From NCBI RefSeq assembly GCF_043950625.1, contig NZ_CP171007.1: a stretch of 32,000 bases of DNA, one strand, 5' to 3'. Shown here in pieces: positions 10,641-30,662 of this stretch. Numbering within the stretch: the first letter of the stretch is position 1; each line of letters opens with the position of its first letter. Made by a program: the position numbers and the translations under genes. The notes under the pieces were generated by a model. It made no database searches. It saw nothing but the letters and a program-made list of their open reading frames with translations, and was not told the origin of the DNA. The DNA is from Alkanindiges sp. WGS2144. GTDB lineage: Bacteria > Pseudomonadota > Gammaproteobacteria > Pseudomonadales > Moraxellaceae.

Positions 10641-10718
10641 GGTGTATATTGACGCAAGTTAACAAGGTCGTATCTGCTTTATTTTAAAGGGATACTCAGA
10701 TTATTTTGGGGAATATAG

Positions 10719-11438: not shown

Positions 11439-11476
11439 GCTTTCTGAGTATAGTACTCAGTTAACCCTCAGACAAC

Positions 11477-11520
11477 AGCACACTGTTTGACTTCTTTTAT
11501 CAAGAAACAGTGTGTTTTTT
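11477..11520 (+). terminator. strong intrinsic terminator in the bfmR-bfmS spacer
   Basis: CACACTGTTT (11479-11488) pairs with AAACAGTGTG (11505-11514), extendable by G-U and A-U pairs. T6 (11515-20) follows. It is preceded by a second small hairpin, CTGAGTA-TAG-TACTCAG (11444-11460). Confidence 0.7.
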
Positions 11521-11622
11521 GTCAGTTTAAATTGAGTTTATTCTGAATAAGCTTAATAATGTGTCGTTTTCTTAAAATAAGTACGCTAAAAAAGTAGCGC
11601 TCGACATTAATGAGGTCCAAGT

Positions 11623-13233: not shown

Positions 13234-13373
13234 GTGGCTCGACGAATAGCGCTAACGCTTTAGGTCAAATGTCTAAACCAGATTCATCAGGGAAAATCTG
13301 TTTAGGCCAGACCACTATATAGTATTGCACCTATTAAAAGCGCGGTCTGGTTCTAATAAAGATGACCGGATAC

Positions 13374-13802: not shown

Positions 13803-13960
13803 GGCAATGACCTATAGGCAAATTAAGGTTGACAGATGTTAGGGCAGAAGCTTTATTTTGACAATAAGAGTTGTCAAAAAATAAATCCGTATAATTAATT
13901 AACCAAGCTTAAAGCACAGCCAGCCTTGTGCATGCAGTCTGTGTGGGAGTATGCAACAAG

Positions 13961-14129
13961 CAGTAAATACCCATTATAAATCTGCTACAATTGCGCCAAT
14001 TTCTAAATTCCATTTTTCCAGTTTTGTGCATATCGACAAGTGTGTGCAATATGGTGTACCTATTGAAGATTTTCTAATGTTTAAAGATCAATTAGCGCAA
14101 GAAGTAAAGGCTCGCAGGACGTTTGCAAT
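13961..14129 (+). repeat. left copy of the island-flanking direct repeat (presumed native prfC leader + first 17 codons)
   Basis: Collinear, with one indel, with 28956-29125. The coding part 14077-14129 matches 29073-29125 at 45/53 nt. By eye the leader is roughly two-thirds to three-quarters identical. Similarity stops exactly at the IS3 end. Confidence 0.85.
14077..14129 (+). pseudogene. prfC: displaced 5' fragment of prfC (17 codons), truncated by IS3
   Basis: Encodes [17 protein letters not shown], compared with [17 protein letters not shown] at the start of the intact prfC (29073). The reading then runs into the IS3 inverted repeat and stops at 14145. Confidence 0.85.
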
Positions 14130-14168
14130 GGTAATCCTCCCATAAATAACCGAAGTTAAAAGTAGAGG

Positions 14169-14981
14169 TTAAGCAGCCATTAGAGGTGGCCTTCCTTTGT
14201 TTGCCTGATGTGGTCTTTCATGGTTGTAATGCCACAGCCAGTTTGTTGCATATTCTTGTACTTCATCCAAAGTATCAAATAAATGTTTGCTCAGCCAACT
14301 ATAACGTATAGTCCGATTATAGCGTTCAATATATGCATTCTGCTGTGGTTTACCTGGTTGAATATATTCAATATGAATACCTTGTTCAGTTGCCCAGCGT
14401 ACAAATTCGTGACTGATAAACTCCGGGCCATTGTCACAACGAATAACTAACGGTTTTTCTCGCCATTCCAATAACTGATCCAATGTGCGAACAACCCTGA
14501 TCGTGGGTAATGAGAATCCTGCTTCAATAGCCAAACCTTCTCGACGGTAATCATCAATTACATTCAATAGCCGGTACTTACGACCATCGATCAGCTGATC
14601 ATGCATAAAATCCAGTGACCAGACCTGATTTGCCCGGATCGGCTCTTTCAGTGGTTCTGGTGCATGCCGTTTTAGTCTTCTTCTCGGTTTAATGCGCAGA
14701 TTTAGTGCCAATTCACAGTAAATGCGATAAACACGCTTATGATTCCAAACATAGTTTTCAACATGACGTAGATAAGAGAAACACAGACCAAAGCCCCAAT
14801 CTGTATTTTCTTCAGTGAGCTTAATGAGCTGTTCTGCAATGAATGCATTGTCATCGTTTAACTTGGACTGATAACGGTAGCAGGTTTCACTGATACTAAA
14901 TGCTCGGCAAGCCAAACGAATGCTAATAGCATGGTGGGCAACTGCCTGTTGTGCCATCTGACGTCGGTGAGATGGCTTCAC
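14169..14981 (-). CDS. IS3-family transposase OrfB (DDE catalytic domain)
   Basis: DDE/RNase-H-fold motifs: [27 protein letters not shown]...HERPH. It lies in the -1 frame relative to orfA. Confidence 0.88.
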
Positions 14982-15274
14982 CCTTGCGCAGCAGTGCTGC
15001 TCATTGCCATCGCTTCCTGGATAATTTCTGCCTTTAATCGTTCTTCCGCATACATCTTTTTAAGTCTGGTATTTTCTGCTTCCAGCTCTTTCAGCCGTGC
15101 CATCAATGATGTATCCATACCACCATATTTGGCACGCCATTTATATGAGCAGCACTGCTGCGCAAGGGCATTACTCATGCCGTGTTCACGACAAAGGGCA
15201 GCTACAGGTGTCCCAGACTCCGCCTGCTTCAAAATGGACATGATCTGACTGTCAGTAAATTTAGATGTTTTCAT
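14978..15274 (-). CDS. IS3-family transposase OrfA (HTH + leucine zipper)
   Basis: [34 protein letters not shown]...[30 protein letters not shown] is a typical IS3/IS407-type OrfA. A candidate -1 slip site A-AAA-AG lies at complement 15056-15062. The orfB frame opens immediately after a TAA overlapping that motif. Confidence 0.85.
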
Positions 15275-15750
15275 GCAGAATCTCCTGCTTGTGTCTTAAG
15301 AGAAAATTCTACTTTTAGATCCTATTATTTTTAGGGGGGATTACCTTAGCTATTACTTCATTGCGAGCTTTATAGAGAAACATATAGAGTTTCACAGCAA
15401 ATTCCTAGCTAAATAACTTTCATAGATATGAGGATGTACAATGTTGTTCTTGAATGCTTCTTGAGCAATATAATTTCCAGATGAAGAGGTCAGCTTATAA
15501 ATCTAAGGTAGAGTCAATTGATCCTTATATAACTAAGATTGAATTTAATCATCTCATATCTTAATTTTTTGATTCAAATGTTAATGATATTAACTTTAAT
15601 AAATTCATAGCATTATGTCGAAATAAAAACCCAGATTTTGGCTCAGCTATGGGAAATTTTTTTAACTTTTATACAACAAAACTTTCTGACATGCATACAT
15701 TAGCAATGTCAGAATCAGTTTTAATTCTAATCAATTGTGGAGTTTTAGTC

Positions 15751-16065
15751 ATGCTTAAAACAGCTTTATATGTCCGTCTTGAAGCTAAACCGGGTAAAGA
15801 AGACGAAGTGGAAGCTTTCCTTAAAGCCGGTTTACCTATTGTAATGGAAGAACCTGCGACAGTTGCGTGGTTTGGCCTACGTCTTGGACCTACAACATTT
15901 GGTATTTTTGATGCATTTCCTGATGAGGCGGGTCGCCAAGCACATTTATCTGGCAAGGTTGCAGCTGCGTTGATGGCTCAGGCCGATGAGCTATTTTCAG
16001 AGCCACCGTCTATTGAAAAAGTAGATGTTTTGGCTAGTAAACTACCAGCTCATACCGACGCTTAA
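15751..16065 (+). CDS. ABM-domain (antibiotic-biosynthesis/quinol monooxygenase-like) protein
   Basis: ORF 15649-16065. The ATG at 15751 is preferred (GGAG 8 nt upstream), giving 104 aa. MLKTALYVRLEAKPGKEDEVEAFLKAGLPIVMEEPATVAWFGLRLGPTTFGIFDAF... is ABM/ferredoxin-like. The stop abuts the IS21 end. Confidence 0.7.
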   Translation: MLKTALYVRLEAKPGKEDEVEAFLKAGLPIVMEEPATVAWFGLRLGPTTFGIFDAFPDEAGRQAHLSGKVAAALMAQADELFSEPPSIEKVDVLASKLPAHTDA

Positions 16066-16066
16066 A

Positions 16067-17025
16067 TGTATGAGTGTTAATTTCAGTGGAAAAATGCACC
16101 ACTTAGCCTAGGGTTTTCAGTGCAATTTTGCACCACCCTAGGGAATGTTAATCTCTCGCTATTTAACAGCGAGGCGAACCTAGGTGTTGTGCATGGAAAC
16201 TGTTGCCAAAGTCAGACGGCTATATCATAAAGACGGACTCTCTCAACGAGCCATTGCGCTCAAGCTGCACTTGAGCCGTCGTACAGTCAGGAAATATCTT
16301 GAGTGTACTGAAGAACCTACCTATCAGCGTCAAGTTCAACCCTATCCCCAATTGGGTGAATATAAAGAGCGCCTTGAAGCACGGTTATTAGTCGAGTTAC
16401 CACTTCCCAAGAGTAAACGCTTAAGTGCCCAGCGACACTTTGAGTGGTTGAAAAGCATTGGCTATCAGGGTGCGTATGGAGCTGTTTGTGGATATATCCG
16501 AACCTACTATAAGACCCATCATCAACCTGTAACAGCATTCATCCCACAACGATTTACCATTGCTGATGCTTATCAGTTTGACTGGAGTACCGAGCAGGTT
16601 CGTTTAGCTGGTGTCGTGATTAAAGTCCAGGTTGCCCACTTTCGTTTATGTTATAGCCGTGGGTTCTTCATCCGCGCTTATCCATCCCAGAAAATAGAAA
16701 TGCTGATGGATGCGCATAATCATGCCTTCACCTACTTTGGTGGCACACCGCAACGTGGCATTTACGACAATATGAAAACAGCGGTAAAAAGCATTGGTTC
16801 AGGCAAGGATCGAGAGTTCAATGATCAGTTTATGGGCATGATGAACCACTTTTTAATTGAACCAGTTGCCTGTACCCCGGCTTCTGGCTGGGAAAAAGGA
16901 CAGGTTGAACGGCAGGTTCAAACCCTGCTTAAAAAGCTGTTTGAGCCGATGCTTGCCTTTGAAACCTTAGAGGAGCTGAATCGATATCTATATGACCAAT
17001 GCAAATATCTGATTACCCAAATATT
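16067..17025 (+). mobile_element. IS21-family element, left end plus 3'-truncated istA (istB and right end missing)
   Basis: The left terminus carries reiterated sites typical of IS21: TTTCAGTGGAAAAATGCACCAC..CTAGGG and TTTCAGTGCAATTTTGCACCACCCTAGGG (16081-16143). IstA similarity ends near 17010-17025. Both ends are approximate. Confidence 0.75.
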
Positions 17026-17065
17026 TGATATCTATTCAAGCCCATTCAACCTATTTCAAATATAA
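16193..17065 (+). pseudogene. istA: truncated IS21-family transposase IstA
   Basis: The ATG at 16193 gives METVAKVRRLYHKDGLSQRAIALKLHLSRRTVRKYL (HTH). The DDE region follows (FDWS, YDNMKTAV, GWEKGQVE). The last ~17 codons (ITQIFDIYSSPFNLFQI*) look unrelated, and no istB follows. Confidence 0.75.
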
Positions 17066-17269
17066 TAATAAAAGCATTGTAAGTGCTGTAAAAATATAAA
17101 AATATTGATATTCTTTATCTGGTATATCTTTCAACCCCATTCAATAGATTTCAAGTCTAGTCAGTATGTTTGTGTACATATGTGTGTACACATTTTCTAG
17201 AATTTTCTATTTGAAAAAAATATGTACACAGGTGGAGTAAAATGCCTTTAACAGATACGTGGCTTAAGA

Positions 17270-18271
17270 TGTGAAAATTGAGACTTCTACTGACATTTTG
17301 GTAAATTTTACCTCATGTCACAGGAGTTTCGATTTTGAGTACAAAAGCCCAGCGGGAAATCGCCCATAAATTAAAAGTATTTGCTCATGCAGAGCACAGT
17401 GGGAATATTGCTTTCACCTGTCGTTATTTTGGTATTTCACGAGATACTTTCTATCGTTGGAAAAAGAATTACCAAACTAAAGGTGAATCTGGGCTAATCA
17501 ACAGCAAGCCCTGTCCAGAAAATCCCAAGTTACGCACGCCTCCTGCCATTGAAGAGAAGATTCTTCATTTACGTCAGCATTATCATTTTGGGCAGGTAAG
17601 GATCAGTTGGTACTTATGGCGCTATCATCAAATTAAAATCTCGGCAGCGGGTGTATATCACGTTTTAAAACGTAATGGTCTGAATCGGCTGCCCCAGAAT
17701 CAGCGAAAACGATCCATTCCTACTCCTCAGCGCTATGAGAAACAAGTACCAGGCCACCATGTTCAAGTTGATGTAAAGTTCTTATTTTTCAAAGATCAAG
17801 ATGGAAAGAGGATTAAAAGATATCAATACACTGCGATTGATGATGCAACCAGAGTCAGGGCACTAAAAATCTATGAAAAGCACAACCAGGCTAATGCGAT
17901 TGATTTTGTCAATTATGTTATTGAGAAGTTTCCTTTTCGGATTCATACCATCCAGACCGATAATGGGCATGAATTCCAATCGAAATTTCATTGGCATTTA
18001 AACGATTTAGCAATTCATCATAGGTACATAAAGCCTCGAACTCCCAAACATAATGGCAAGGTCGAGCGATCTCATAAGACCGACAAGATGGAGTTTTACC
18101 AGTTATTAAACTATACCGATGATGTCGACCTAAACGCTAAATTAGCGGAATGGGAGGCATTTTATAACTATGCCAGACCTCATGCTGCTATGGATGGAAA
18201 AACACCCTATGAGCGATTGAAAGAAAAACTATGCTAAAGTTATGATGTCAGCGGAAGTGCTAGTATTCACA
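17270..18271 (+). mobile_element. IS481-family insertion sequence (~1.0 kb)
   Basis: Terminal inverted repeats TGTGAAAATTGAGACTTCTACTGAC (17270-) and the reverse complement of the 18271 end, TGTGAATACTAGCACTTCCGCTGAC, match at 18/25. One transposase gene. The flanks (TTAAGA / CTTTAA) are not a duplication. Confidence 0.85.
17335..18237 (+). CDS. IS481-family DDE transposase
   Basis: 300-aa ORF with a TTG start and AGGAG upstream. An N-terminal HTH (ISRDTFYRWKKNY) is followed by an integrase-core DDE (VQVDVK, TDNGHEF, NGKVERSH). Confidence 0.9.
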   Translation: MSTKAQREIAHKLKVFAHAEHSGNIAFTCRYFGISRDTFYRWKKNYQTKGESGLINSKPCPENPKLRTPPAIEEKILHLRQHYHFGQVRISWYLWRYHQIKISAAGVYHVLKRNGLNRLPQNQRKRSIPTPQRYEKQVPGHHVQVDVKFLFFKDQDGKRIKRYQYTAIDDATRVRALKIYEKHNQANAIDFVNYVIEKFPFRIHTIQTDNGHEFQSKFHWHLNDLAIHHRYIKPRTPKHNGKVERSHKTDKMEFYQLLNYTDDVDLNAKLAEWEAFYNYARPHAAMDGKTPYERLKEKLC

Positions 18272-18280
18272 CTTTAAAGT

Positions 18281-18307
18281 AGGGAGTGTGAACTCCCTTA
18301 TTTTTTT
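18281..18307 (+). terminator. orphan intrinsic terminator immediately right of IS481
   Basis: AGGGAGT-GTGA-ACTCCCT followed by TA+T7. No gene remains upstream for it to terminate. Confidence 0.7.
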
Positions 18308-18368
18308 CTCTTCTCCAGATGTAGATTGCTTGCTATATTGAATTATCATCAAAAATTAATTTATAACA

Positions 18369-21206
18369 ATGTTCTACACTAACCACCAAATAAAATATTT
18401 TGCATGGGAAATTACAAAAAAACGCTCGGCATCAGACGTTGATCGTTTGTCGCAGTCGTTGTTTGATGCTCAGGTCGATGTAAATCCTCACCAAATTGAA
18501 GCTGCACTTTTTGCTTTAAATAATCCTTTAAGTAAAGGGGTCATTCTTGCTGATGAAGTGGGATTAGGGAAAACAATCGAGGCAGCTTTGGTGCTATGTC
18601 AGTATTGGGCTGAAAGACGTCGAAATTTATTAATTATTTGTCCTGCATCTTTACGAAAGCAATGGGCACAAGAACTACAGGATAAATTTAACTTGCCTAC
18701 ACAAGTTTTAGATTTGAAAACTTGGAATATGGCTCGCAAAGATGGCATTTATGATCCATTTAAAAATGGCAAGATTTCTATAATTTCATATCCTTTTGCA
18801 AATCGAATGGAATATGCCTTGGCACAAATTCCATGGGATTTAGTTGTCATTGATGAAGCACATAAATTACGGAATGCTCATCGCTCAAGTAACAAAATTG
18901 GGAATAGTCTTAAACGCTCATTGATAGGCAAGAAAAAGTTGTTATTAACAGCGACACCGTTACAGAACACTTTAATGGAGCTTTATGGTTTAAGTACGAT
19001 AATAGATGAGCACTTATTTGGGGATGAGAAAGCATTTCGTTCTAGATATGTGGTTGATGGTGATATTCAATCGTTAAAAAAAAGAATCCAACAATTTATG
19101 CAAAGGACTTTGCGTAAAGATGTTTTGGAATATGTTCCTTACACTGACCGCCATGCTTTAACCGTACCATTTACACCTACGGATGATGAGCAAAGTCTAT
19201 ACAACTCAATCAGTGAGTATTTGCAACGAGAAGTTAGTTATGCATTTCCACAACAACAAAAACATTTAATTTCAATTGTTTTAAGAAAACTTTTGGCATC
19301 CTCGACTCCTGCTGTAATTGCAACTTTAGAAGCTATTCAACAGCGACTGAAAAAATTGCTTGAACAGCAGAGTCTAGATGAAGATTGGCTCAGTAATTTT
19401 ATTGTTGATGAGGATATGGATGAAGAGCTACTGGATGATTTTGATGAGGAAGCAGGTCATGGACAAATAGATGTTAGTTTAATTAAATCTGAAATAGCTG
19501 AAATTGAACGTTATATACAGCAGGCTTATAAAATTAAAGATGATAGTAAGACTTTTGCTTTACTTTCCGCGATTGAGCAAGGCTTTGCTCGTATGTTTGA
19601 AATGGGGGCGAAACGAAAGGCTGTTATTTTTACTGAATCAAAGCGTACTCAGGAATACTTGATCGCATTCTTGGAAGCACGAGGATACAACGGAAAAGTA
19701 ATAGGATTTAATGGTAGTAATACATCTGCAACGAATACAGGTATTTATCAAAAGTGGTTGGGTAAATATTTAGGGACTCAACATGTTACAGGCTCACCAG
19801 CAATTGATCGACGCACGGCTTTAATCGATTTTTTTAAGAATGAGGCAGAAATACTCATTGCGACAGAAGCAGCAGCAGAAGGTGTGAATTTACAATTTTG
19901 CTCTTTGGTCATTAACTATGATTTACCATGGAATCCGCAACGTGTGGAACAACGAATAGGTCGTTGCCATCGTTATGGGCAGGAGTTTGATGTTGTTGTC
20001 GTTAATTTCTTAAATGAAAGGAATGAAGCCGATCAGCGAGTTTTAGAGTTACTTAAAGATAAATTTCAATTATTTGATGGTGTCTTTGGTGCCTCGAATG
20101 ACATTTTAGGGACAGTTGAAAGTGGTATAAATTTTGAAAAACGGATTTCTGAAATTTATGATCAGTGTCGTAGTCCAGAAGAAATAGAACAAAGCTTTAA
20201 GCAATTAAGAGATGAGCTAGAAGAGCAAATCAACGTTAAAATGAAAAGGACGCAAGAGCTGTTACTTGAGCATTTTGATGCAGATATTCATGACTTGCTA
20301 AAAGTACAAAAAGAACGAGCTGAACTACAGCTAGATAAAATTAGTCGTTTGTTTTGGCTATCTACAAAATATATTCTTGGTAAATTTGCTAACTTTCACG
20401 ACCAAGATTTAAGTTTTGACTTAACAAAATCTCCAATTTTGAATGCACCTTCAGGGAAATATCAGCTTATACGAAAAGGTGAGCGAATTCCTGAAAATAC
20501 TTTTATCTATCGTTTGACTCATCCGCTTGGTGAATTTGTTTTAGATAATGCCAAAGGCTTACAAACACCAAAACAATTCATTCAGTTTGATTATAGCCAG
20601 TATGGTCAAAAGGTAACGCTACTAGAAGAGTTAAAAGGGCAAAAGGGTTGGCTATCTATTACGGTCTTGAGTTTGGATTCTTTTCAAGAAGAAGAACATA
20701 TTGTGATCACAGCAATGACTGATGATGGTAGGGTTTTAGATGTAGATTTGTGTGAGCGTTTGCTTCAAGTCAATGCAACAGTATTGTCTGATGTGGTAGA
20801 CACGATTCCCGACCTATTTCAGGCAAATATTGATAAGCAATATCAAGTTGCTTTGAATCATGCTTTGGAATTGAATGATGAGTTTTTCAGAAAGGAACGC
20901 GATAAGTTAGAGCAGTGGGCTGAGGATAGTTTGCTTGCTGTGGAGAAAATGCTTGAAGATATAAAGTTGAAAATATCTAGTCTGAAACGAGAGTCTCGCA
21001 AAGCACCTGATATTGAAACTGAAAAACGACTACAGGAAGAAATACAAAAAGCTGAAAAAGAAAAACGACGCATGAGACAGCAGGTTTTTGATGTTGAAGA
21101 TGAAATCGCAGATAAGCGTGATGCAATGATTGATGCATTGGAGCAAAGACTACATCGCTCAAGTAAAGCCGAGAATTTATTTGCAGTGAGGTGGCAGTTG
21201 GTTTAA
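18369..21206 (+). CDS. SNF2-family helicase/translocase with unassigned ~350-aa C-terminal domain and coiled coil
   Basis: 945 aa. Motifs: I ADEVGLGKT (GLGKT = aa 65-69, nt 18561-18575), II VIDEAHKLRN (DEAH aa 162-165), III LLLTATPLQN, V ATEAAAEGVNLQ, VI WNPQRVEQRIGRCHRYGQ. The region from aa ~600 to 850 is unrecognised. Aa ~850-930 is heptad-rich and charged (…KLEQWAEDSLLAVEKMLEDIKLKISSLKRE…). Confidence 0.9.
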   Translation: MFYTNHQIKYFAWEITKKRSASDVDRLSQSLFDAQVDVNPHQIEAALFALNNPLSKGVILADEVGLGKTIEAALVLCQYWAERRRNLLIICPASLRKQWAQELQDKFNLPTQVLDLKTWNMARKDGIYDPFKNGKISIISYPFANRMEYALAQIPWDLVVIDEAHKLRNAHRSSNKIGNSLKRSLIGKKKLLLTATPLQNTLMELYGLSTIIDEHLFGDEKAFRSRYVVDGDIQSLKKRIQQFMQRTLRKDVLEYVPYTDRHALTVPFTPTDDEQSLYNSISEYLQREVSYAFPQQQKHLISIVLRKLLASSTPAVIATLEAIQQRLKKLLEQQSLDEDWLSNFIVDEDMDEELLDDFDEEAGHGQIDVSLIKSEIAEIERYIQQAYKIKDDSKTFALLSAIEQGFARMFEMGAKRKAVIFTESKRTQEYLIAFLEARGYNGKVIGFNGSNTSATNTGIYQKWLGKYLGTQHVTGSPAIDRRTALIDFFKNEAEILIATEAAAEGVNLQFCSLVINYDLPWNPQRVEQRIGRCHRYGQEFDVVVVNFLNERNEADQRVLELLKDKFQLFDGVFGASNDILGTVESGINFEKRISEIYDQCRSPEEIEQSFKQLRDELEEQINVKMKRTQELLLEHFDADIHDLLKVQKERAELQLDKISRLFWLSTKYILGKFANFHDQDLSFDLTKSPILNAPSGKYQLIRKGERIPENTFIYRLTHPLGEFVLDNAKGLQTPKQFIQFDYSQYGQKVTLLEELKGQKGWLSITVLSLDSFQEEEHIVITAMTDDGRVLDVDLCERLLQVNATVLSDVVDTIPDLFQANIDKQYQVALNHALELNDEFFRKERDKLEQWAEDSLLAVEKMLEDIKLKISSLKRESRKAPDIETEKRLQEEIQKAEKEKRRMRQQVFDVEDEIADKRDAMIDALEQRLHRSSKAENLFAVRWQLV

Positions 21207-21348
21207 TACCAATTGCTATTTTTTTCTACAAATTTTTTTTATATTCAAAGTTATTTCTAGTATCCTTATCAGTTAATTTTGCCTAAGCAATTTTATTCGC
21301 TTCACCAGAACCTATTTATCATAAGGTTTTGAAAAATAGGAAATATTC

Positions 21349-24300
21349 ATGAGTACTCAGTTTTCTGCACTTGTTTCTAAACTCAAAGAGATTTTTCAAA
21401 TCAATCGTCCTGATTTAGATTTTGGAGTTTATCGCATTTTAAATGCACGTAGTGCCGAAATTGCTGAGTTTTTGGATAAGCGTTTAAAAACCAAAGTAGA
21501 GCAATATCTTGGCGAAGCAAAGTCGAGTCTTGATGAAAATGTTTTAAAAGAATTAGAAGCTGAGCTGAAAGCAGAATTTGGTAAACGTGCTTTTAATGAG
21601 CAAGGTGAGCTTATAGATGCTGAAGCAATAGAAAGTGCATTAGGTCAAAAATACATTGCTTTAACCCAAGCTGATGCACATGAAATGACAGATCAGTCAC
21701 AAGTGTATAGTCATTTGCTCACGTTCTTTAGTCGTTATTACGATGATGGTGACTTTATTAGCCAACGTCGTTATAAGGGTGATACCTATGCTATCCCTTA
21801 CTCTGGTGAGGAAGTGATGTTGCACTGGGCAAACAAAGACCAGTACTACACCAAGTCTGGTGAGATGTTTAGCAACTATCGTTTTAAGTTGAACGATGAG
21901 CGTTCAGTTTTATTCCGTTTGGTGAGTGCAGATACAGCGCGTGAAAACCGTAAAGATAATGATAAAGACCGTCGCTTTATTATTGTGACAGAACCAAAGA
22001 CCTTTACTCGTATAGATGAAGACGGTGAAGAGTTTGAAGAAACGATTGTTCCATTCTCTATTCAAAATAATGAACTGACCATTCTTTTTGAATATGCAAC
22101 TTTGCCTAAAGGCTCAAAGCAAGAAACATTAAATATTGAATCGTATAACAAAATTGTTAATGCAGAAGTTTTAACTACTGACTGGCTAAATGATTTAGCT
22201 CAACCTGCACCGACTGAAAAAGAACCAAAGCGTACAGTGTTGCACAAGCACTTGAGTACCTATACGCAAAAAAATACAGCAGATTATTTTATTCATAAAG
22301 ACTTAGGTAAATTCTTACGTCATGAACTTGATTTTTATATTAAAAATGAAGTGATGCATTTAGATGATGTAGTGAGTACCGATCAATTTATTCAAATTGA
22401 ACGTCAACTTAGTATTATCAAGTGTTTACGTCAGATTGGTTTAGAAATTATTAGTTTCTTGGCTTCGCTTGAAGATTTTCAGAAAAAGTTGTGGCTAAAG
22501 AAAAAGTTTGTCGTCAGTGCTGAATACTGCATTACTTTAGACCGAGTGGACGAGTCTTTATATACTGAAATTGCAGGCAATACATCACAGTGGCAACAAT
22601 GGGAGGATTTAGGCTTTAAAGGAACAGATGCAGGTTGGGGAACGGTTGATTATTTAAAACAGCACCAAGCCTTGATGGTGGATACTTCATTATTTAGCTT
22701 AGAGTTTAAAGCAAAGCTTTTAAAACGAATAGATGATTTAGATGCTCAAACTGATGGTTTGATTATTAATAGTGATAATTTTCAGGCACTAAGTTTACTC
22801 GGTGAAAAGTATAAACAATTAGTTGGTTGTATATATATCGATCCTCCTTACAATGCAAAGTCATCTGAAATCTTGTATAAGAATACATTTAAGCATTCAG
22901 CATTTTTAACTTTTATATCAAATCGTTTAGAGGTTTCTAAACCATTTTTACAATCTGGTGGTTTACTAAATATAGCAATAGATGATTATGAGCAAAAAGG
23001 AGTTATAACGGTATGTGATGAAATATATGGAAGTAATAATTTCATAGCGAATGTTGTTGTCCAACATAATCCTCGTGGAAGAAATGATGACAAGTTTTAT
23101 GGAACTTCTCATGAATATATGATTGTTTATACCAATAATATTGAAAATGCTAATTTAGGAAATTTTACATTAAGTGATGAAGATAAGAGTATTTATCGAT
23201 TAAGCGATACTATTTCTAAGTATCAAGAAGTTTCTTTTATGAGAACAGGTAACAATTCAGATAGAGTAACTAGACCTAATCTGTTTTACCCAATCTATTT
23301 AAATAAAAAGACTAATCTGTTAAGTCTTGATAAATCTGATGATTCGATAGAGATTTTACCAATAAATTCATCTAAAGAAGAAAAAACATGGCGTTGGGAG
23401 AGAAAAACATTCTTAGAAAGAAAAGATACGGAGGTTTCATTTAAAATTTCTGAAGATGGTGTTCGGCTTTATAAAAAAAGAAGATTACTTGATGTTGGTA
23501 AAAAACCAAAAACCATTTGGTTTGATTCAAAATATGATGCTTCAAGCAGTGGAATTATGTTCCTAAGGAACTTTTTTTCTAAGGATAATCACGAGTTTTC
23601 ATACCCTAAATCAATTTATACCGTTAAAGATGCAGTATATATTTCATCATCAAAAAATGGTGTTGTTTTAGATTATTTCGCAGGTTCAGGTACAACTGCT
23701 CATGCAACGATTGCTTTAAATCGTGAAGATAATGGAAATCGAAAATATATCCTTGTTGAGCAAGGCGAGTATTTTGATACAGTCATTAAGCCACGTATCC
23801 AAAAAGTCGTGTATTCAGCAGACTGGAAAGAGGGTAAACCAACCAATCCTGAGTCTGGTATTAGCCATTGCTTAAAAGTTGTGAAACTTGAAAGTTATGA
23901 AGATACGCTAAATAACTTAGAATTGGTGCGTAAAGGTGCTCAACAGACACTTTTAGCCGAGCAACAAGCTTCAACCAAGCCTGAAGATCAAAACGCTTAT
24001 AGCGATTATCTCATGCACTATATGCTTGAGTTAGAAAGCAAAGATTCATTACTGAATGTGAAAGACTTCTTAAAGCCATTTAGCTATCAAATGAATATTA
24101 CAACCGATAGCGCAGGTGCGTTTGAACGTAAAAATATTGACTTGGTTGAAACCTTTAACTATCTCATTGGACTAAATGTTCAAGAAGCAGATTATCAGTT
24201 AGACAAAGGCTATGTGCAAATCACAGGTAAACTACGTACAGGTGAATACACGACAGTTTTGTGGCGTGACTGTGAAAAGATTGGCTATGCAGAACTAGAT

Positions 24301-24471
24301 CAATTACTAGCAAAACTTAAAATTAATCCAAACGATGGCGAATACCAATTGATTTATATCAATGGTGATCATAATGTCGCGAGTAAGTACATCAACAAAG
24401 AGGGCGAAGAGAAACAGCTTAAAGTCCGTTCGATTGAACAAACCTTCTTAAAAAATATGTTTGAGGAGTAA
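21349..24471 (+). CDS. Mod-like beta-class N6-adenine/N4-cytosine DNA methyltransferase with ~480-aa N-terminal and ~230-aa C-terminal extensions
   Basis: 1040 aa with AGGAAA 8 nt upstream. Motif IV IYIDPPYN (DPPY aa 498-501, nt 22840-22851) precedes motif I VLDYFAGSGTTAHA (aa 774-787). A variable segment lies between them. This matches the Type III Mod layout (SDNFQALSLL, HSAFLTFISNRL, NIAIDD, NREDNGNRKYILVEQ). Confidence 0.9.
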   Translation: MSTQFSALVSKLKEIFQINRPDLDFGVYRILNARSAEIAEFLDKRLKTKVEQYLGEAKSSLDENVLKELEAELKAEFGKRAFNEQGELIDAEAIESALGQKYIALTQADAHEMTDQSQVYSHLLTFFSRYYDDGDFISQRRYKGDTYAIPYSGEEVMLHWANKDQYYTKSGEMFSNYRFKLNDERSVLFRLVSADTARENRKDNDKDRRFIIVTEPKTFTRIDEDGEEFEETIVPFSIQNNELTILFEYATLPKGSKQETLNIESYNKIVNAEVLTTDWLNDLAQPAPTEKEPKRTVLHKHLSTYTQKNTADYFIHKDLGKFLRHELDFYIKNEVMHLDDVVSTDQFIQIERQLSIIKCLRQIGLEIISFLASLEDFQKKLWLKKKFVVSAEYCITLDRVDESLYTEIAGNTSQWQQWEDLGFKGTDAGWGTVDYLKQHQALMVDTSLFSLEFKAKLLKRIDDLDAQTDGLIINSDNFQALSLLGEKYKQLVGCIYIDPPYNAKSSEILYKNTFKHSAFLTFISNRLEVSKPFLQSGGLLNIAIDDYEQKGVITVCDEIYGSNNFIANVVVQHNPRGRNDDKFYGTSHEYMIVYTNNIENANLGNFTLSDEDKSIYRLSDTISKYQEVSFMRTGNNSDRVTRPNLFYPIYLNKKTNLLSLDKSDDSIEILPINSSKEEKTWRWERKTFLERKDTEVSFKISEDGVRLYKKRRLLDVGKKPKTIWFDSKYDASSSGIMFLRNFFSKDNHEFSYPKSIYTVKDAVYISSSKNGVVLDYFAGSGTTAHATIALNREDNGNRKYILVEQGEYFDTVIKPRIQKVVYSADWKEGKPTNPESGISHCLKVVKLESYEDTLNNLELVRKGAQQTLLAEQQASTKPEDQNAYSDYLMHYMLELESKDSLLNVKDFLKPFSYQMNITTDSAGAFERKNIDLVETFNYLIGLNVQEADYQLDKGYVQITGKLRTGEYTTVLWRDCEKIGYAELDQLLAKLKINPNDGEYQLIYINGDHNVASKYINKEGEEKQLKVRSIEQTFLKNMFEE

Positions 24472-24477
24472 TGCACT

Positions 24478-27400
24478 GTGGCAAAAGCTCCTAAAGCAAA
24501 AACTAAAGCGGTTAAAGTCAATTTCCACGAGCAATTGATTTTAAATAAATGGTTGTGGTCGAAGTTTAATCCGAATCGTTTGGAAGGCATGAAACAACAG
24601 CTTGATTATCCTCAGTTTGAGGGAATCGAGTATGAAGGTGATAATGCAGGACAAACGAAATTCTTTAGTGTGATCAGTAATACTTTGTTTAACAAACAGG
24701 TTGTAGATATCGATGTTCTACGTCGCTATGACTTAAACATTGTGAAGCACTGGCAAAAAATTACGGAAAAACGTAATGAAATAGAAGGTCATATTTTAAA
24801 TCTAAAATATTTCCAATACCTTTCATTGCTTTTCACAGAACTGTATTTAGATCAATATTTTAATCATCAAGCGGATATGCTCAATGAGCTGAATGTTGAA
24901 CTTGAACAATATAATGATGATCAGAAAATTGATGCAGACCAATTTCAGCAATATTTGCCTGAAGACCTAAATAAAATCGGCTATTGGAATGCAACGGGCA
25001 GTGGTAAAACATTGCTTATGCATGTCAATATTTTGCAGTATTTAGACTATTTCCAAAAGCAAAATGGAGACAGCACTTACCCAGACCAAATCATTTTACT
25101 TACCCCAAATGAAGGCTTGAGTGAACAGCATTTACAAGAGCTGACAGACTCTGGTTTTCAAGCGACTTTGTTTGATAAGCAAAAAAGCCGTAATAACCTT
25201 TATCGAGATGAAATTCAAATCATCGATATGAACAAGCTGAGTGATACGGATGGTGATAAAACTGTTGCGACGATGAGCTTGGAAGGTAGAAACCTTGTTC
25301 TGATCGACGAAGGGCACCGTGGTACGAGTAGTAGCGCAGGTGCCTGGATGGAGCGTCGTGATATTCTTACTAAAGATGGATTTAGCTTTGAATATTCGGC
25401 AACCTTTGGTCAAGCTGTGAGTAAAGCAGACAACGTCTATAAACGCTTTGAAGATGCAAAAAAACAAAAAGCCAAAATGCTGTATGGTATGGCGATTAAT
25501 AAGTTAACCGAAGAACAGAAAAAAAATATTCAGCTTGATGAATTAGAACAGCAAAAATACCGTAGGGAAGCGCTTCGAGAAGTATATGCTAAAAGTATTT
25601 TGTTCGATTACTCGTACAAATACTTCTATGCAGATGGCTATGGTAAAGAAGTCAATATTCTGAATATGAAAGAATATCATGAAGATGATGAGCGCAATCT
25701 ATATCTTACAGCTTGCCTACTTTCATTTTACCAACAACAGTATTTGTTTAAAAAGAATCAGGCAAAACTTGCCAAGTTTAATATTGAAAAACCACTGTGG
25801 GTATTTGTCGGAAATAAAGTCAATGATGATGACTCTGATATTTTAGCCATTGTGAAATTCTTAGCTGACTTTTTAGATGCCTCTCGTAAGAGCAAGGTGA
25901 TTGGTTGGCTGCATGACTTAATTACTAATACATCTCGTTTGGTTGATCCTAAAGGAAACAATATTTTTGCCAATCGATTTGCACCTTTACATGGTCAAAA
26001 TGCAACTGATCTTTACCAAGATATTTTAAAAAGCTTTTTTAACGCTACAACCAATCAACGTTTGAATGTAGTACGTATCACGGCGAATAAAGGTGAGTTG
26101 CGTTTACAGGTCGGAGAAAATACTCCTTTTGCAGTGATTAATGTCGGTGATGAAAAAGGCCTATACGATAATTGTGAGAACTCAAGTCAAACGCATTACA
26201 TCAATGCTCGTACCGATGATTTTGCAGAGTCATTATTTCCTACATTAAATAATGATGATAGTGAAACACATCTTCTAATCGGTTCACGTAAATTTACCGA
26301 AGGTTGGAGTAGCTGGCGTGTCTCGACCATGGGCTTGTTGAACATGGGTTCAGGTGAAGGTGCTCAGATTATTCAGCTCTTTGGTCGTGGCGTACGTTTA
26401 AAAGGTGAGAACTTCTCTTTAAAACGAACACCAAGAGAAATTTATAGTAAGGCTGAATATAAAGGTCTGCATTTAGATTTGATGCAAACTATTAATATTT
26501 TTGGTTTACGTGCTGACTACATGGAAAAATTCCGCGATTATCTAAATGATGAAGGCATTATCCTGAATCAGGATTTAGTCACATTGGATTTTCCAACCAA
26601 TAAAATTCAAGCGCCTCGCTTAAAAACACTCACATTAAAAGATGGCTACAAAGATAATCAAGCGAATGGTTTTAAGGCTCAGTTAAAGCTTTCGATGTTT
26701 AAGATTCCAAAACAATACGAAGGTAAAATCAAAAAACCTTTTGTTGTTTTGGATTTGTATCCTCGCTTGCAAGCCTTTCATACCGATAAGTCAAAGCGTC
26801 AAATTGATGTTAAAGACAAGCGTCAAGAGCATGAGATTCCACCAAAAATCATGTGTATGTTTGATTTTGATGAAATTTACTTGCAACTTCAGCAATATAA
26901 GTTCCAACGAGGATATAGCAACTTACAGTTGAACGTTGATGATTTACAGGAGTTTTGCTTAAGAGATATTAAGACCTCTACAGAAGACTGGTACAAGCTT
27001 TTAGTTGACTCATCTGAATTAACCAATGACGTGAGTGGAATTAAGAAACAGCAAGCGATATTAACTGAGTTGTTACAGTCCTATATGGATAAGTTCTATC
27101 ATGCGATTAAGAATGCCTATGAAGGGCAGTTTTATGAAGTGACAGAATTTAGCTTGGATGATAAAGATTTACCTGTGCAAATTTGTGAGCAATATACCCT
27201 TACTGCTAAAGACGGTCAAAATAACGAGGCACAAGAAGTATTTGACCGATTAGAAAAGTTGAAAGACTTGGTTGCCAAAGGTGATGTTGAAAAACTGGTA
27301 CCTTGGAAAGAAGATGGTAGCTTTAGGGCGATTACGTTTGATCGTCATTTGTTCTATCCGTTGTTGGATAAGAAGGATGAAAGCTTACCATTTACATGGT

Positions 27401-27900
27401 CACCAATGCTATTTGACTACACTAGTCATACCCAAAGTAGTGAAGTGAAGTTTGTTCTGGATTTGCAAAGTTATATCAATACTCCAGATGCCAATGAACT
27501 CCTGAAAAATCATGAACTCTATTTGTTGCGTAATGCTGATAATAAGTATCGTGGACTAGGTTTCGCCTTGGCAGGTAATTTTTACCCTGATTTTTTATTG
27601 TGGCTAGTGAATAAACAAACAGGGCAGCAATATTTAACTTTAGTTGATCCTAAAGGCATCCGAAACATGAATCACGATGATGCTAAAATTGAGCTCTACA
27701 AAGAGATAAAAAGTATTGAAGCAAAACTCGATCATTCTGACTTGATTTTGAATAGCTTTATTTTGTCTATTACCCCAATGAAAGATATTCTGAATAACTC
27801 TCTTTCTGAAGAAGAGTTTGCTGAAAAAAATGTCTTATTTATGGTGGGTAATGGGACAGCTTATCTTGAGCAAATGTTGAAGAAAATTTTTGTTCAATAA
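24478..27900 (+). CDS. Res-like SF2 helicase/ATPase fused to C-terminal PD-DxK nuclease
   Basis: 1140 aa. GTG start with GAGGAG about 9 nt upstream, 6 nt after the mod stop. Motifs: Walker A ATGSGKT (aa 172-178), motif II LIDEGH (277-280), III SAT (307-309), V/VI FTEGWSSWRV...QLFGRGVRL. The nuclease motif is YPD(1038)FLLW...LVD(1057)PK(1059)G. Confidence 0.88.
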   Translation: MAKAPKAKTKAVKVNFHEQLILNKWLWSKFNPNRLEGMKQQLDYPQFEGIEYEGDNAGQTKFFSVISNTLFNKQVVDIDVLRRYDLNIVKHWQKITEKRNEIEGHILNLKYFQYLSLLFTELYLDQYFNHQADMLNELNVELEQYNDDQKIDADQFQQYLPEDLNKIGYWNATGSGKTLLMHVNILQYLDYFQKQNGDSTYPDQIILLTPNEGLSEQHLQELTDSGFQATLFDKQKSRNNLYRDEIQIIDMNKLSDTDGDKTVATMSLEGRNLVLIDEGHRGTSSSAGAWMERRDILTKDGFSFEYSATFGQAVSKADNVYKRFEDAKKQKAKMLYGMAINKLTEEQKKNIQLDELEQQKYRREALREVYAKSILFDYSYKYFYADGYGKEVNILNMKEYHEDDERNLYLTACLLSFYQQQYLFKKNQAKLAKFNIEKPLWVFVGNKVNDDDSDILAIVKFLADFLDASRKSKVIGWLHDLITNTSRLVDPKGNNIFANRFAPLHGQNATDLYQDILKSFFNATTNQRLNVVRITANKGELRLQVGENTPFAVINVGDEKGLYDNCENSSQTHYINARTDDFAESLFPTLNNDDSETHLLIGSRKFTEGWSSWRVSTMGLLNMGSGEGAQIIQLFGRGVRLKGENFSLKRTPREIYSKAEYKGLHLDLMQTINIFGLRADYMEKFRDYLNDEGIILNQDLVTLDFPTNKIQAPRLKTLTLKDGYKDNQANGFKAQLKLSMFKIPKQYEGKIKKPFVVLDLYPRLQAFHTDKSKRQIDVKDKRQEHEIPPKIMCMFDFDEIYLQLQQYKFQRGYSNLQLNVDDLQEFCLRDIKTSTEDWYKLLVDSSELTNDVSGIKKQQAILTELLQSYMDKFYHAIKNAYEGQFYEVTEFSLDDKDLPVQICEQYTLTAKDGQNNEAQEVFDRLEKLKDLVAKGDVEKLVPWKEDGSFRAITFDRHLFYPLLDKKDESLPFTWSPMLFDYTSHTQSSEVKFVLDLQSYINTPDANELLKNHELYLLRNADNKYRGLGFALAGNFYPDFLLWLVNKQTGQQYLTLVDPKGIRNMNHDDAKIELYKEIKSIEAKLDHSDLILNSFILSITPMKDILNNSLSEEEFAEKNVLFMVGNGTAYLEQMLKKIFVQ

Positions 27901-27903
27901 AGT

Positions 27904-28914
27904 ATGGGACAAATTGAAAATATGAAATACCAACCGCCTTATACCATCACCTCAAAAATCATTCATCTGATTGCTCAGATCAGTGAAAATATAGGGCGTT
28001 TGACTGTTTTAGAGGAAATTCAGGACAGCTTAAAACTACGAAAAGCCAATCGTATCCGTACCATTCAAGGCTCACTGGCGATTGAAGGGAACACTTTAAG
28101 TACGGAACAGATCACGGCGATTCTAAATGGTAAGACCGTAATTGCACCTCCAAAAGAAGTTCAAGAAGTGCGTAATGCGATTAAAGCCTATGAAGCCTTT
28201 CAGCAGTGGCAACCAAGTCAAGAGTCGGACTTACTACAAGCTCATCAAATTTTAATGACAGGCTTGATTGATGAAGTTGGTCAGTATCGTCATGGTGGTG
28301 TCGGTGTAATGTCAGGTGATCGAGTGGTGCATATGGCTCCGCCTGCAAATCAAATTAATCGACTGATGGTTGACTTACTTGATTGGTTAAATGATAGCGA
28401 AGTGCATCCTCTTATCCAAAGTTCAGTATTTCACTATGAGTTTGAATTTATTCATCCATTTGCGGATGGTAATGGGCGCATGGGAAGGCTATGGCAAACT
28501 TTAATATTAAGCAGATGGAATCCAATCTTTGCTAATATTCCTGTTGAGAGTTTGATCTATCAAAATCAAAAAGCCTACTATGAGGCTTTGCAAGCAAGTA
28601 CAGACCGAACAGATTCAGCCCCATTTATAGAATTCATCTTACAGATGATTTTAGATGCCATTCTTAGTTCAACTGATACCGCTCAAGATAGCGATCATGC
28701 TACCGCTCAAGTGAGCGACCAAGTTCAGCGTTTACTTTCGGCAATGAAGCAAGAAGATTATACTTTAGCTGAATTGATGCAATTGGTTGGATTAACGCAT
28801 CGAGCAACGTTCCAAAAGAATTACTTAAATCCTGCAATAGAAGCAGATTTGATTGAGCGTACTATTCCAGATAAGCCGAAAAGTCCGAAACAAAGATATA
28901 GATTAAAAAGATAA
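27904..28914 (+). CDS. Fic-family (AMPylase-type) protein, class II, with C-terminal winged-helix
   Basis: 336 aa starting 3 nt after the res-like stop. The Fic motif HPFADGNGRMGR (aa 184-195) is intact. An N-terminal inhibitory-helix motif SLAIEG (aa 57-62) fits (S/T)xxxE(G/N). The C-terminal ...LIERTIPDKPKSPKQRYRLK is a wHTH-type tail. An alternative start is the ATG at 27922. Confidence 0.88.
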   Translation: MGQIENMKYQPPYTITSKIIHLIAQISENIGRLTVLEEIQDSLKLRKANRIRTIQGSLAIEGNTLSTEQITAILNGKTVIAPPKEVQEVRNAIKAYEAFQQWQPSQESDLLQAHQILMTGLIDEVGQYRHGGVGVMSGDRVVHMAPPANQINRLMVDLLDWLNDSEVHPLIQSSVFHYEFEFIHPFADGNGRMGRLWQTLILSRWNPIFANIPVESLIYQNQKAYYEALQASTDRTDSAPFIEFILQMILDAILSSTDTAQDSDHATAQVSDQVQRLLSAMKQEDYTLAELMQLVGLTHRATFQKNYLNPAIEADLIERTIPDKPKSPKQRYRLKR

Positions 28915-28955
28915 CAATACATTCAATTGTGGATAAATCAAGACATATCCGCAAT

Positions 28956-29125
28956 CAGTAAAATCCTATTCAAATCTGCTACAATTACGCCAATTTTGAA
29001 TTCCCACTTTTTCAGTTTTAGTACATATTTAGAAATGTGTACATAACTGTGTACATATTGTAGATTTTTCTTATGTTTAAAGATGAATTAGCTAGAGAAG
29101 TAAAGGCTCGTAGAACCTTTGCCAT
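28956..29125 (+). repeat. right copy of the island-flanking direct repeat (island-type prfC leader + first 17 codons)
   Basis: Homologous to 13961-14129 (see that feature). It carries a tandem TGTGTACATA-AC-TGTGTACATA (29036-29057) that recurs inside the island at 17171-17192. Confidence 0.85.
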
Positions 29126-30662
29126 CATTTCGCACCCAGACGCCGGTAAAACCACTATGACCGAAAGACTCCTGCTATGGGGTAAAGCCATTAGCGTGGC
29201 CGGTACAGTTAAAAGCCGCAAATCAGATCGTCATGCCACTTCCGACTGGATGGAGATGGAAAAGGAACGCGGTATTTCCATTACGACATCGGTCATGCAG
29301 TTTCCTTATAAAGACCATACCATCAACCTGCTGGATACACCGGGGCACGAGGATTTCTCGGAAGATACCTATCGCACTCTGACTGCGGTGGATTCTGCCC
29401 TGATGGTGATTGACGGGGCAAAAGGGGTAGAAGAGCGTACTATCAAACTGATGGATGTATGCCGTATGCGCGATACGCCAATTATTTCTTTTGTAAATAA
29501 ACTCGACCGCGAAATTCGGGAGCCACTGGAGCTTCTGGATGAAATTGAAAGTGTGCTCAAAATTCGCTGTGTGCCTATTACCTGGCCGCTTGGTATGGGA
29601 CGTGATTTTGCGGGTGTTTATCATATTAGCCAAAACAAAACCTATATTTATCAGCCGGGACACGGGACAGAAATCGTCGAGGTCGAAGTGCGCGATGGTT
29701 ATGATTATCCCGATATCCGGGAAAAACTGGGTGACCTGGCCTTTAAATCATTTGAAGAGTCGCTGGAACTCGTACAAATGGCAGGGGATGAGCTGGATGC
29801 CGAGCAGTTCCTGACAGGTAAGCAGACGCCAGTATTGTTTGGCACGGCTTTGGGTAATTTTGCGGTAGATCATGTGCTTAATGCGTTTGTAGACTGGGCA
29901 CCGCCGCCCAAAGCACATCCGGCGCAGGAGCGTATGGTTGAGGCCACCGAAGCAGGCTTTAGCGGTTTTGTATTTAAAATTCAGGCCAATATGGATCCCA
30001 AGCATCGTGACCGTATTGCCTTTATGCGCATTTGTTCAGGCCGTTATGAAAAAGGCCTGAAAATGAATCATGTACGGCTGGGTAAGGAGGTACGTATTAG
30101 CGATGCCTTAACGTTTCTGGCCGGTGAGCGCGAGCATCTGGAAGAAGCCTGGCCGGGTGATATTATTGGCCTGCATAATCATGGCACCATTCAAATTGGT
30201 GACACCTTTACCAGTGGCGAGAACTTGCATTTTACCGGTATTCCGCACTTTGCGCCTGAGCTGTTTCGCCGTGTGCGCCTAAAAGACCCATTAAAGTCCA
30301 AGCAGCTGCAAAAAGGCTTAAAAGAGTTGTCCGAAGAAGGGGCAACCCAGGTGTTTATGCCGCAAATCAGTAATGACTTAATTGTAGGTGCGGTTGGGGT
30401 GCTGCAATTTGACGTAGTGGCCTATCGCCTCAAGGAAGAGTACAAGGTAGATTGCGTGTATGAACCGATCAATGTTAATACAGTGCGCTGGATTCACTGT
30501 GACGATGAAAAAATACTTAATGACTTCAAGAAAAAGGCGCATGATCAGTTGTCCATTGATGGCGGTGGTTATTTGACTTATCTGGCACCCAGCCGGGTAA
30601 ACCTGCAACTCATGCAGGAGCGCTGGCCAGATATTGAATTCCGCTCTACCCGCGAGCATTAA
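29073..30662 (+). CDS. prfC: peptide chain release factor 3
   Basis: 529 aa. GTPase G1 [13 protein letters not shown]3 DTPGHEDF, G4 NKLD. Full-length collinearity with RF3. Confidence 0.96.

Follow-up and report, generated by a model that had tools for sequence, protein, structure and literature searches.

The stretch of DNA analyzed here, which we call the window, comprises 32,000 nt of contig NZ_CP171007.1 of Alkanindiges sp. WGS2144; all coordinates are positions in it, and L- and P-numbers are our labels for the loci or contigs and for the proteins that were compared with it. It carries prfC, the gene for RF3, and a second copy of the 5' end of that gene, and between the two lie insertion sequences (ISs), traces of an integrase gene, and a block of defense genes that ends in a Fic gene. 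The two copies of the prfC 5' region are collinear, in the same orientation, and about 175 bp long (13954-14129 on the left and 28932-29125 on the right, plus strand), and each consists of a prfC leader, an ATG (14077 and 29073, respectively), and 17 codons. The left copy directly adjoins backbone DNA, ~150 bp from an SRPBCC gene, and ends at 14129, where an IS3-family element starts (14130). It holds an Acinetobacter-type prfC promoter region and leader, the 17 codons, and the first 2 nt of a recombination core, and is a dead 5' fragment. The right copy continues into an intact prfC, whose 529-aa product has all RF3 domains. GC content is ~45-50% in the backbone and 31-39% in the 15-kb island and its cargo, and it rises again within prfC.

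An earlier note on this DNA had described the two collinear copies and the match between their coding parts, and both observations held. Aligned with MAFFT, the copies have a mean column identity of 84%, with two ungapped blocks at 85% each, one of 60 nt (14070-14129 and 29066-29125) and one of 48 nt (13978-14025 and 28972-29019). A BLAST search of the left copy against the remaining window returned the right copy at 79% identity over 175 nt (E = 2e-37), and all other matches had E values of at least 0.48. The coding parts agree at 45 of 53 nt, and seven codons differ, five of them synonymously and two nonsynonymously, which argues that both copies evolved as functional gene starts and not as drifting dead DNA; their divergence bears the signature of purifying selection. 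The left junction is also spanned by an independent Logan contig (L081, assembly SRR30887707), which is 100% identical to window 3374-14159 and stops 30 nt inside the IS3 element, so that the junction is no artifact of the present assembly. Neither an Rfam family nor a tRNA was found at the leader or anywhere in the window, so that the site is neither an att site of the tRNA type nor an RNA leader of a known kind.

On the right, the repeat ends exactly at the crossover core (29124-29140, plus strand; ATCATTTCGCACCCAGA), which covers prfC codons 18 to 23 (IISHPD). The recombination site of SXT/R391 elements is 17 bp long, with the attP consensus ATCATCTCTCACCCTGA, and mismatch to attB of up to 23.5% is tolerated in SXT/R391 (PMC9058013, PMC6541609). 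When the published core was aligned to the junction, as the earlier note had suggested, the window core agreed with the attP consensus at 14 of 17 positions, with the mismatches at third codon positions. The proposal that the right copy came with the element and was joined to host prfC at the SXT/R391 core was borne out. The arm of the element next to prfC accordingly spans 28932-29123 (plus strand) and contains the leader, the ATG, and 17 element-borne codons, and the hybrid prfC (29073-30662, plus strand) has codons 1 to 17 from the element and an Alkanindiges-type body from the core on. On the left, the repeat was said to be cut by the IS3 element right at the start of the core. This held as well, the IS3 element beginning 2 bp into the equivalent point of the core.

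The core junction has a counterpart in Aliiglaciecola (L062), where a prfC fragment ends in ...AIISHPD with the core ATCATCTCGCACCCCGA, an integrase gene (start MALTESWLKA) follows 210 bp after the fragment, and the core is repeated at the start of an intact prfC 2.7 kb downstream. An Alteromonas locus (L065) has a similar arrangement, and E. coli genomes gave no DNA match to the attL/int region of L062.

It is also important to establish which organism this prfC belongs to. The host and its relatives had been taken for Acinetobacter, a placement that flank identities, synteny, and phylogeny overturn in favor of the Alkanindiges clade. The flanks best resemble Alkanindiges illinoisensis and two metagenomic relatives, with protein identities to this clade of 97-99% for BfmR, 87-88% for BfmS, 87-90% for NrdA, and 74-81% for the SRPBCC protein. 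The prfC body is 90% identical to the clade, and the gene order (nrdA, bfmRS-like genes, SRPBCC gene, prfC, and DUF3298 gene) is identical in Alkanindiges relatives. In a neighbor-joining tree of prfC bodies, the window pairs with P0002, beside Alkanindiges illinoisensis, and Acinetobacter forms a separate clade.

The three Alkanindiges-clade references have empty sites, a distinct leader, and 531-aa proteins with the N terminus MTDF[AS]QEL..., and more basal lineages have MTD-type N termini too. No trace of the native Alkanindiges leader or N terminus is left in the window; homology to the host intergenic region ends at ~13884, and the junction segment 13885-13953 has no match among the sequences compared. 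Both copies are of the Acinetobacter type, ~75% identical to the leader of Acinetobacter chengduensis. With an Alkanindiges-like host, two Acinetobacter-type copies, and no native leader, these comparisons mark the left copy, like the right one, as foreign to its host. The earlier note had read the left copy as the native host leader and looked to empty-site relatives for a leader of the 13961-14129 type, and in the host's own clade that expectation fails. None of the empty sites examined natively carried a leader of the right-copy type. An inverted repeat (TTTTGACAATAAGAGTTGTCAAAA) at 13853-13876, upstream of the SRPBCC gene and kept in Alkanindiges relatives, is the final host-like sequence ahead of the foreign left copy; it looks like an operator.

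Related islands at prfC, which the earlier note had thought worth searching for, do exist in Acinetobacter genomes, with the same cargo and the same right end of Fic, leader, and prfC. Six contigs (L085-L090) have an SNF2-Mod-Res-Fic block upstream of prfC with 95-97% DNA identity to window 18270-28899, followed by five more genes after Fic, including those for PP2C, FtsK-gamma, and two GmrSD proteins, after which comes a leader that matches the right copy at 87%. The window island does not have the PP2C-GmrSD block found in L085. Eight further loci (L119-L126, including the complete genome CP031991.1, in which the island occupies about 2,839,747-2,860,751 in reversed orientation) have variable defense cargo (type I restriction-modification), Fic, leader, and prfC. 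The element leaders of L085, L090, and L119-121 match the right copy at 85-88% identity.

Three of these loci reveal what moves with the element. The leader and N terminus (MFKDELAKQVKV) are the same in L119, L121, and L122, whose prfC bodies are 97.9%, 84.7%, and 95.1% identical, respectively, to that of the island-free locus L182 (Acinetobacter baumannii group, N terminus MSFKDELAAQVAQ, 204-bp intergenic region upstream of prfC). Per 15-nt window, L119 and L182 agree at 8, 12, 5, and 11 positions upstream and at 15/15 from TTTGCT plus ATTATTTCCCACCCCGA on; the island-bearing and the island-free genome differ only upstream of the core. Identical leaders on prfC bodies of different species, together with the switch at the core, make this a natural crossover at the SXT core for this family, and at the level of sequence they demonstrate that the leader and N terminus travel with the element.

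At the other end of the island, a fragment of the integration module survives. The int-proximal (left) arm of the attachment site (17066-17241, plus strand) has TGTACA at 17173, 17185, and 17223 and ATGTACACAGGTGGA directly before the int ATG, and it leads into an integrase remnant (17242-17268, plus strand) of nine codons, MPLTDTWLK, interrupted by an IS481-like element. MPLTDTWLK aligns with the integrase starts of relatives (MALTESWLKA, MALTEVWLKA, and MALTDSWLKA) at the same spacing from the TGTACA repeats, and window 17160-17268 is alignable with the regions upstream of int in L114, L062, and L113. Features common to these regions are a TGTACA pair 12 bp apart, a third TGTACA, and ATGTACACAGGTGGA just before the ATG. 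TGTACA occurs six times in the 32-kb window, and five of the six lie in the two arms, the three on the left and a pair on the right (29038 and 29050) that is also 12 bp apart; a repeat search joins 17171-17195 to 29033-29059 in direct and inverted orientation. From this placement we infer that the TGTACA motifs are putative arm-type integrase sites, and the paired motifs are testable candidates for such sites in this integrase family. Beside the IS481-like element, int from codon 10 onward and the genes for DUF932, YqaJ, and a Gp3-like protein (as well as AlpA where relatives have it) are missing, and homology to the relatives L090/L098 restarts exactly at 18270, which fits a deletion.

Full-length integrases of the MALTE.WLKA type, of 402-407 aa, were found in four IMG/VR contigs by a degenerate start-pattern search, which yielded non-Acinetobacter relatives only. 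The closest full-length relative of the remnant has 401 aa and occurs in the Acinetobacter phage vB_AbaM_ABMM1 (L115, OQ471969.1) and in A. baumannii NZ_CP104448.1 (L114:5700-7206). It sits right after the 3' end of alaS, with the TGTACA-repeat arm present, at a site common to six IMG/VR contigs, and a search with the 15-mer ATGTACACAGGTGGA matched only this alaS-adjacent phage type. The 4.09-Mb A. baumannii record NZ_CP104448.1 is filed in PLSDB as "plasmid unnamed1" and carries alaS; it is evidently a chromosome. In one of the IMG/VR contigs (L113:8402-8560, minus strand; IMG/VR 3300035670_000626), an integrase starting MALTDSWLKA lies downstream of a fragment encoding ...LSHIRNFSIIAHI, which is the G1-motif start of lepA (EF4) and not of prfC. 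The integrase family thus seems to target a homologous GTPase motif in different translation-factor genes.

The Acinetobacter relatives indicate what the complete island may have looked like; those borne by prfC were read within 10-kb flanks. Six of the eight L119-L126 loci have AlpA ahead of the cargo, and the Gp3-like gene is visible in L120. In metagenome contigs, the genes upstream of the cargo encode DUF932, YqaJ, and a Gp3-like protein that resembles recombination directionality factors, and AlpA is also present in L093; those contigs that have the SNF2 gene reach no more than 4.7 kb upstream, and no int was found within that stretch. The content of the cargo slot varies (type I restriction-modification, Kiwa, GmrSD, and others). 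Fic homologues that are 92-99% identical are widespread in Acinetobacter, and Fic is the final island gene both at the Fic-leader-prfC loci (L119-L126) and at the other sites of more distant cousins, to which the Fic homologue P0154 leads. These cousins (L099-L107 and L184-L191) have the same backbone and terminal Fic, with unrelated integrases and at other sites, and the IMG/VR relatives of the DUF932 gene have unrelated P4-like integrases, again at other sites. Islands at L184-L191, from several Acinetobacter species, end in a 92%-identical Fic at other chromosomal sites, and their type I restriction-modification operons hold different genes between hsdS and hsdR (Kiwa KwaAB, AAA_13 ATPases, and DUF4276), which looks like a defense hot spot nested within a defense operon.

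Judged from these comparisons, the family is one of modular islands, in which an exchangeable integration module is combined with a defense hot spot. The islands appear to be ~17-27 kb in size, judged from parts of several relatives, and are apparently nonconjugative; no conjugation or phage structural genes were found in the readable parts of the Acinetobacter relatives. We found no published description of this Acinetobacter island family in the literature searched. The window shares only the right-hand part of the family, that is, variable defense cargo, Fic, and the element leader, joined to prfC at the core; the DUF932, YqaJ, and Gp3-like genes (AlpA in some) found upstream of the cargo in relatives are absent from it.

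Taken together, we consider it probable that 14130-29123 is the immobilized remnant of a small integrative defense island inserted by an SXT-Int-type tyrosine integrase. The left copy is most simply explained as what a previous leader replacement left behind. The ancestral layout of the family would have been int, DUF932, YqaJ, the Gp3-like recombination directionality factor, AlpA in some, variable defense cargo, Fic, and leader. In the order of events that we infer, the integrase would have inserted such an island into the 17-bp core at prfC codons 18 to 23. Its far arm (28932-29123) would have supplied a promoter region, a leader, and 17 codons, reading into the host gene so that RF3 expression was kept, and the displaced earlier 5' end, now the left copy, would have been stranded on the opposite side of the island. 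At the arrival of the present element, prfC would have been using that left copy as its working 5' end, which in turn would have been left by an earlier integration whose body, like the native leader, had been deleted. The IS481-like element would have removed int past codon 9 along with the backbone genes, and a block made of the IS3 element, a plasmid fragment, and a truncated IS21 would have taken the place of the attL core, and perhaps also of a few tens of base pairs in the arm. Three IS-linked events would in this way have fixed the island in place, with the SNF2/DrmD-like helicase, the type III Mod and Res proteins, Fic, and the element-borne prfC 5' end as survivors.

Several observations weigh against this account. 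The integrase is gone, and the family assignment rests on nine codons and the arm upstream of them, in a group whose MALTE.WLKA-type members are only ~45-50% identical to each other. The full gene set and attL are inferred from fragments and from cousins at other sites. The match at the core is mostly forced by conservation of the IISHPD codons, so that 14/17 by itself proves little; it is the position that counts. No remnant of an earlier element accompanies the left copy, the adjoining segment 13885-13953 being the unmatched one, and the left copy is about as similar to the resident leaders of island-free Acinetobacter bohemicus and A. chengduensis as to element leaders. Finally, a simple sigma-70 scan of the right leader found no promoter; its putative promoter activity has in its favor only the extended -10-like box TGCTACAAT at 28977-28985, which is conserved in Acinetobacter leaders.

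What is new here is the prfC 5'-replacement strategy in small defense islands of Moraxellaceae. The strategy is known from large integrative conjugative elements (ICEs) in Vibrio and Proteus, as well as from Stx phages. In the end state seen in the window, ISs have erased mobility, while the anti-phage cargo and the gene start borne by the element remain. As the native leader is gone, RF3 expression in the host appears wholly reliant on imported DNA, a concrete case of an integrating element becoming impossible to lose. In addition, new defense systems of Acinetobacter may be sought in the variable slot that separates the backbone genes from Fic.

For the origin of the left copy, we favor a scar left by an earlier integration of the same kind over co-import or a native origin. 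A scar is in keeping with a junction made site-specifically at the core, and SXT/R391 elements are documented to integrate repeatedly at prfC and to form tandem arrays there (PMC5122569, citing Hochhut 2001 and Burrus & Waldor 2004). The left copy is intermediate in sequence; its promoter-distal half is close to element leaders, and its ATG-proximal half is close to the resident leaders of A. bohemicus and A. chengduensis. A CAACAA.CAGTAAA extension upstream of the promoter was considered as an element-type mark of the left copy and dropped, as the native leader of the A. baumannii group has the same extension. In island-free A. bohemicus (L116:9075-10000) and A. chengduensis (L001:8756-10000), the noncoding DNA upstream of prfC is 926 and 1245 bp long, respectively. 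The leaders of these two species carry an integrase-family TGTGTACATATTG-type motif, whereas the 204-bp empty site of the A. baumannii group is without it; a search of the long intergenic stretches of the two species found no int or Fic remnants. It is possible, although we put this forward tentatively and expect it to be wrong somewhat more often than right, that prfC 5' ends are serially overwritten by elements, such that the body of each element decays, its leader stays, and the next element displaces the relic. The left copy would be one such fossil, and A. bohemicus and A. chengduensis may hold older ones in their "native" leaders of the MFK... type. If so, the 5' end of a gene in an essential pathway would be inherited horizontally and depend on mobile-element DNA.

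Alternatively, the island could have integrated into prfC of an Acinetobacter donor, with the left copy as the donor leader, and a fragment running from the attL flank through the island and attR to the start of prfC could then have been transferred by transformation, transduction, or conjugation. Recombination, whether homologous or homology-facilitated illegitimate, would have replaced the Alkanindiges leader, and no site-specific event would have taken place in the host. One step would account for both Acinetobacter-type copies and for the missing native leader, and the likeness of the left copy to the resident leaders at L116 and L001 is as expected, as is the Acinetobacter origin of the IS3 element and plasmid fragment. 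However, the switch from AT-rich element codons to host codons rich in GC at third positions falls at the core and not within prfC, where a homologous crossover would be predicted. Donor and host prfC share only 74-80% DNA identity, a poor substrate for RecA, and the left junction is without homology, so we regard co-import as unlikely.

Still more doubtful is a single event, in which the prfC leader and 5' end displaced by one SXT-like integration were native to the host. Such an event would place the left copy next to the backbone, where it is, and differences that are largely synonymous suit a 5' end that once functioned; the "native" Alkanindiges state is, moreover, defined by three reference genomes only. 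Yet all three share a different leader and an MTDF... N terminus, and the prfC body of the window nests among them in the tree, in flanks that are 87-99% identical at the protein level with the same synteny. The MTD type of the basal lineages, the ~75% identity of the left copy to Acinetobacter leaders, and the end of host intergenic homology at ~13884 all speak against a native origin as well.

The mechanism is that of SXT/R391, namely, use of the prfC core and supply of a new 5' end, but the element is no SXT/R391 ICE. SXT/R391 elements give prfC a new promoter region and N-terminal codons, such that the gene stays intact, according to the part of PMC8409611 that cites Hochhut & Waldor 1999, and members of the family are recognized by an integrase that hardly differs from IntSXT (Wozniak et al. 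2009, PMC2791158). The window island shares with them the 17-bp IISHPD core, the element-supplied 5' end, and the placement of int, which lies next to attL and is read away from it. This likeness would suit a genuine SXT/R391 ICE stripped of its transfer genes, which we nevertheless hold to be very improbable. No tra, setCD/setR, bet/exo, or xis genes were found in the window (Pfam, PADLOC) or in the readable parts of relatives, and the backbone of these relatives (DUF932, YqaJ, Gp3-like, AlpA in some, and Fic) also occurs with unrelated integrases elsewhere. Unlike SXT/R391, the present family consists of small islands around a defense hot spot that end in Fic and reside in Moraxellaceae hosts, and the element arm is a ~190-bp copy of an Acinetobacter-type prfC leader. 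The view of the earlier note that the island is decayed and not an ICE therefore stands, with int lost, IS damage, and no conjugation gene. A local duplication of the prfC 5' region, with divergence of the copies and insertion of the island between them, would yield collinear copies in one orientation but can practically be dismissed, given a 15-20% divergence that is mostly synonymous, as between two working starts, a right copy 85-88% identical to element leaders in other species, and the likeness of neither copy to the leader of the host clade.

Other systems offer partial parallels, and phages and further islands use integrases of this family as well. Stx1a/Stx2c phages of E. coli CC119 are located at prfC (PMC10132054), and their integrase is of the same family as, and 48.8% identical to, the IMG/VR relative starting MALTESWLKA. 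A Marinomonas prophage at prfC (L035) has three TGTACAAAT motifs immediately upstream of the phage-borne prfC ATG, a likeness to the repeats in the window. In contrast to the window and its Acinetobacter relatives, where no structural genes were seen, the prfC prophages are complete phages with such genes. The Acinetobacter islands (L085-L090 and L119-L126) are the closest parallel, with SNF2, Mod, Res, and Fic genes at 95-97% DNA identity, the Fic-leader-prfC right end, and variable cargo; unlike them, the window copy is without int, backbone genes, and attL core, and its host is Alkanindiges-like. Integrative mobilizable elements that target dusA or yicC (e.g., IMEVchUSA3) also enter a housekeeping gene at its 5' end and repair it with their own promoter and an altered N terminus (PMC8409611). 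These differ in integrase clade and target gene, and IncC plasmids or SXT are known to mobilize them, whereas the window island has no known helper.

The left part of the island is made of ISs and associated DNA. The ISAca1-like IS3-family element (14130-15345, minus strand) contains orfA (14978-15274) and orfB (14169-14981) with HTH_Tnp_1 and rve domains, has imperfect terminal inverted repeats, and is flanked by AAT and TTA, that is, by no target duplication; it is 92.6% identical to copies on Acinetobacter lwoffii plasmids. It is followed by a 0.7-kb segment of Acinetobacter plasmid type (15346-16077, plus strand) with an antibiotic-biosynthesis-monooxygenase-like open reading frame (ORF) at 15649-16065. 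This segment is 98% identical to many Acinetobacter plasmids, where it is annotated as ABM monooxygenase or fghA flank, and it arrived together with the IS elements. A truncated IS21-family istA (16184-17065, plus strand) matches NF033546 (IS21) at model positions 1-266 of 294, and the match stops at residue 276, at about position 17012. Beyond the integrase remnant lies the IS481-family element (~17270-18269, plus strand), with a transposase at 17335-18237 (IS481 equivalog, 275 bits) and no target duplication.

The cargo proper consists of four genes on the plus strand. The first (18369-21206) encodes an intact SNF2-family helicase of 945 aa that is DrmD-like (PADLOC DrmD, E = 9e-202) and 96-98% identical to its relatives; DrmA, DrmB, and DrmC of the DISARM system had no match in the window by PADLOC, which leaves the DrmD-like helicase only. 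It is followed by a type III Mod methyltransferase of 1040 aa (21349-24471; PADLOC MTase_III, E = 4e-295, full length; Pfam N6_N4_Mtase) and an intact type III Res protein of 1140 aa (24478-27900; PADLOC REase_III, 1264 bits, full length; Pfam ResIII), which, being adjacent and both full length, make up a type III restriction-modification system. L090 and L085, although 95-97% identical elsewhere, could not be aligned with the central stretch of Mod (22899-23667), which is probably a swapped target-recognition domain. The last gene (27904-28914; Pfam/PADLOC) encodes a SoFic-like Fic-domain protein, the conserved terminal gene of the island family. The cargo ORFs have the same lengths as in relatives, and the genes are therefore probably functional.

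Some smaller observations concern repeats and neighboring genes. Near the 3' end of Fic (28674-28721), three imperfect, 12-bp-phased repeats code for a short, repetitive acidic linker. In the backbone, a NERD-domain ORF lies beside nrdB (4942-5538) and is called as a gene in Logan L081 too, and islands of the L085 type have a NERD-UvrD helicase between SNF2 and Mod. Lastly, a Ketobacter metagenome-assembled genome (L006:7117-7314 and 9995-10190) has the first ~58 prfC codons duplicated near-exactly ~2.9 kb upstream. The two copies flank a helix-turn-helix gene and a 412-aa gene, read by eye, not by domain, as a HipA-like toxin pair, and because this duplication extends well beyond the SXT core, it looks like a different kind of insertion.

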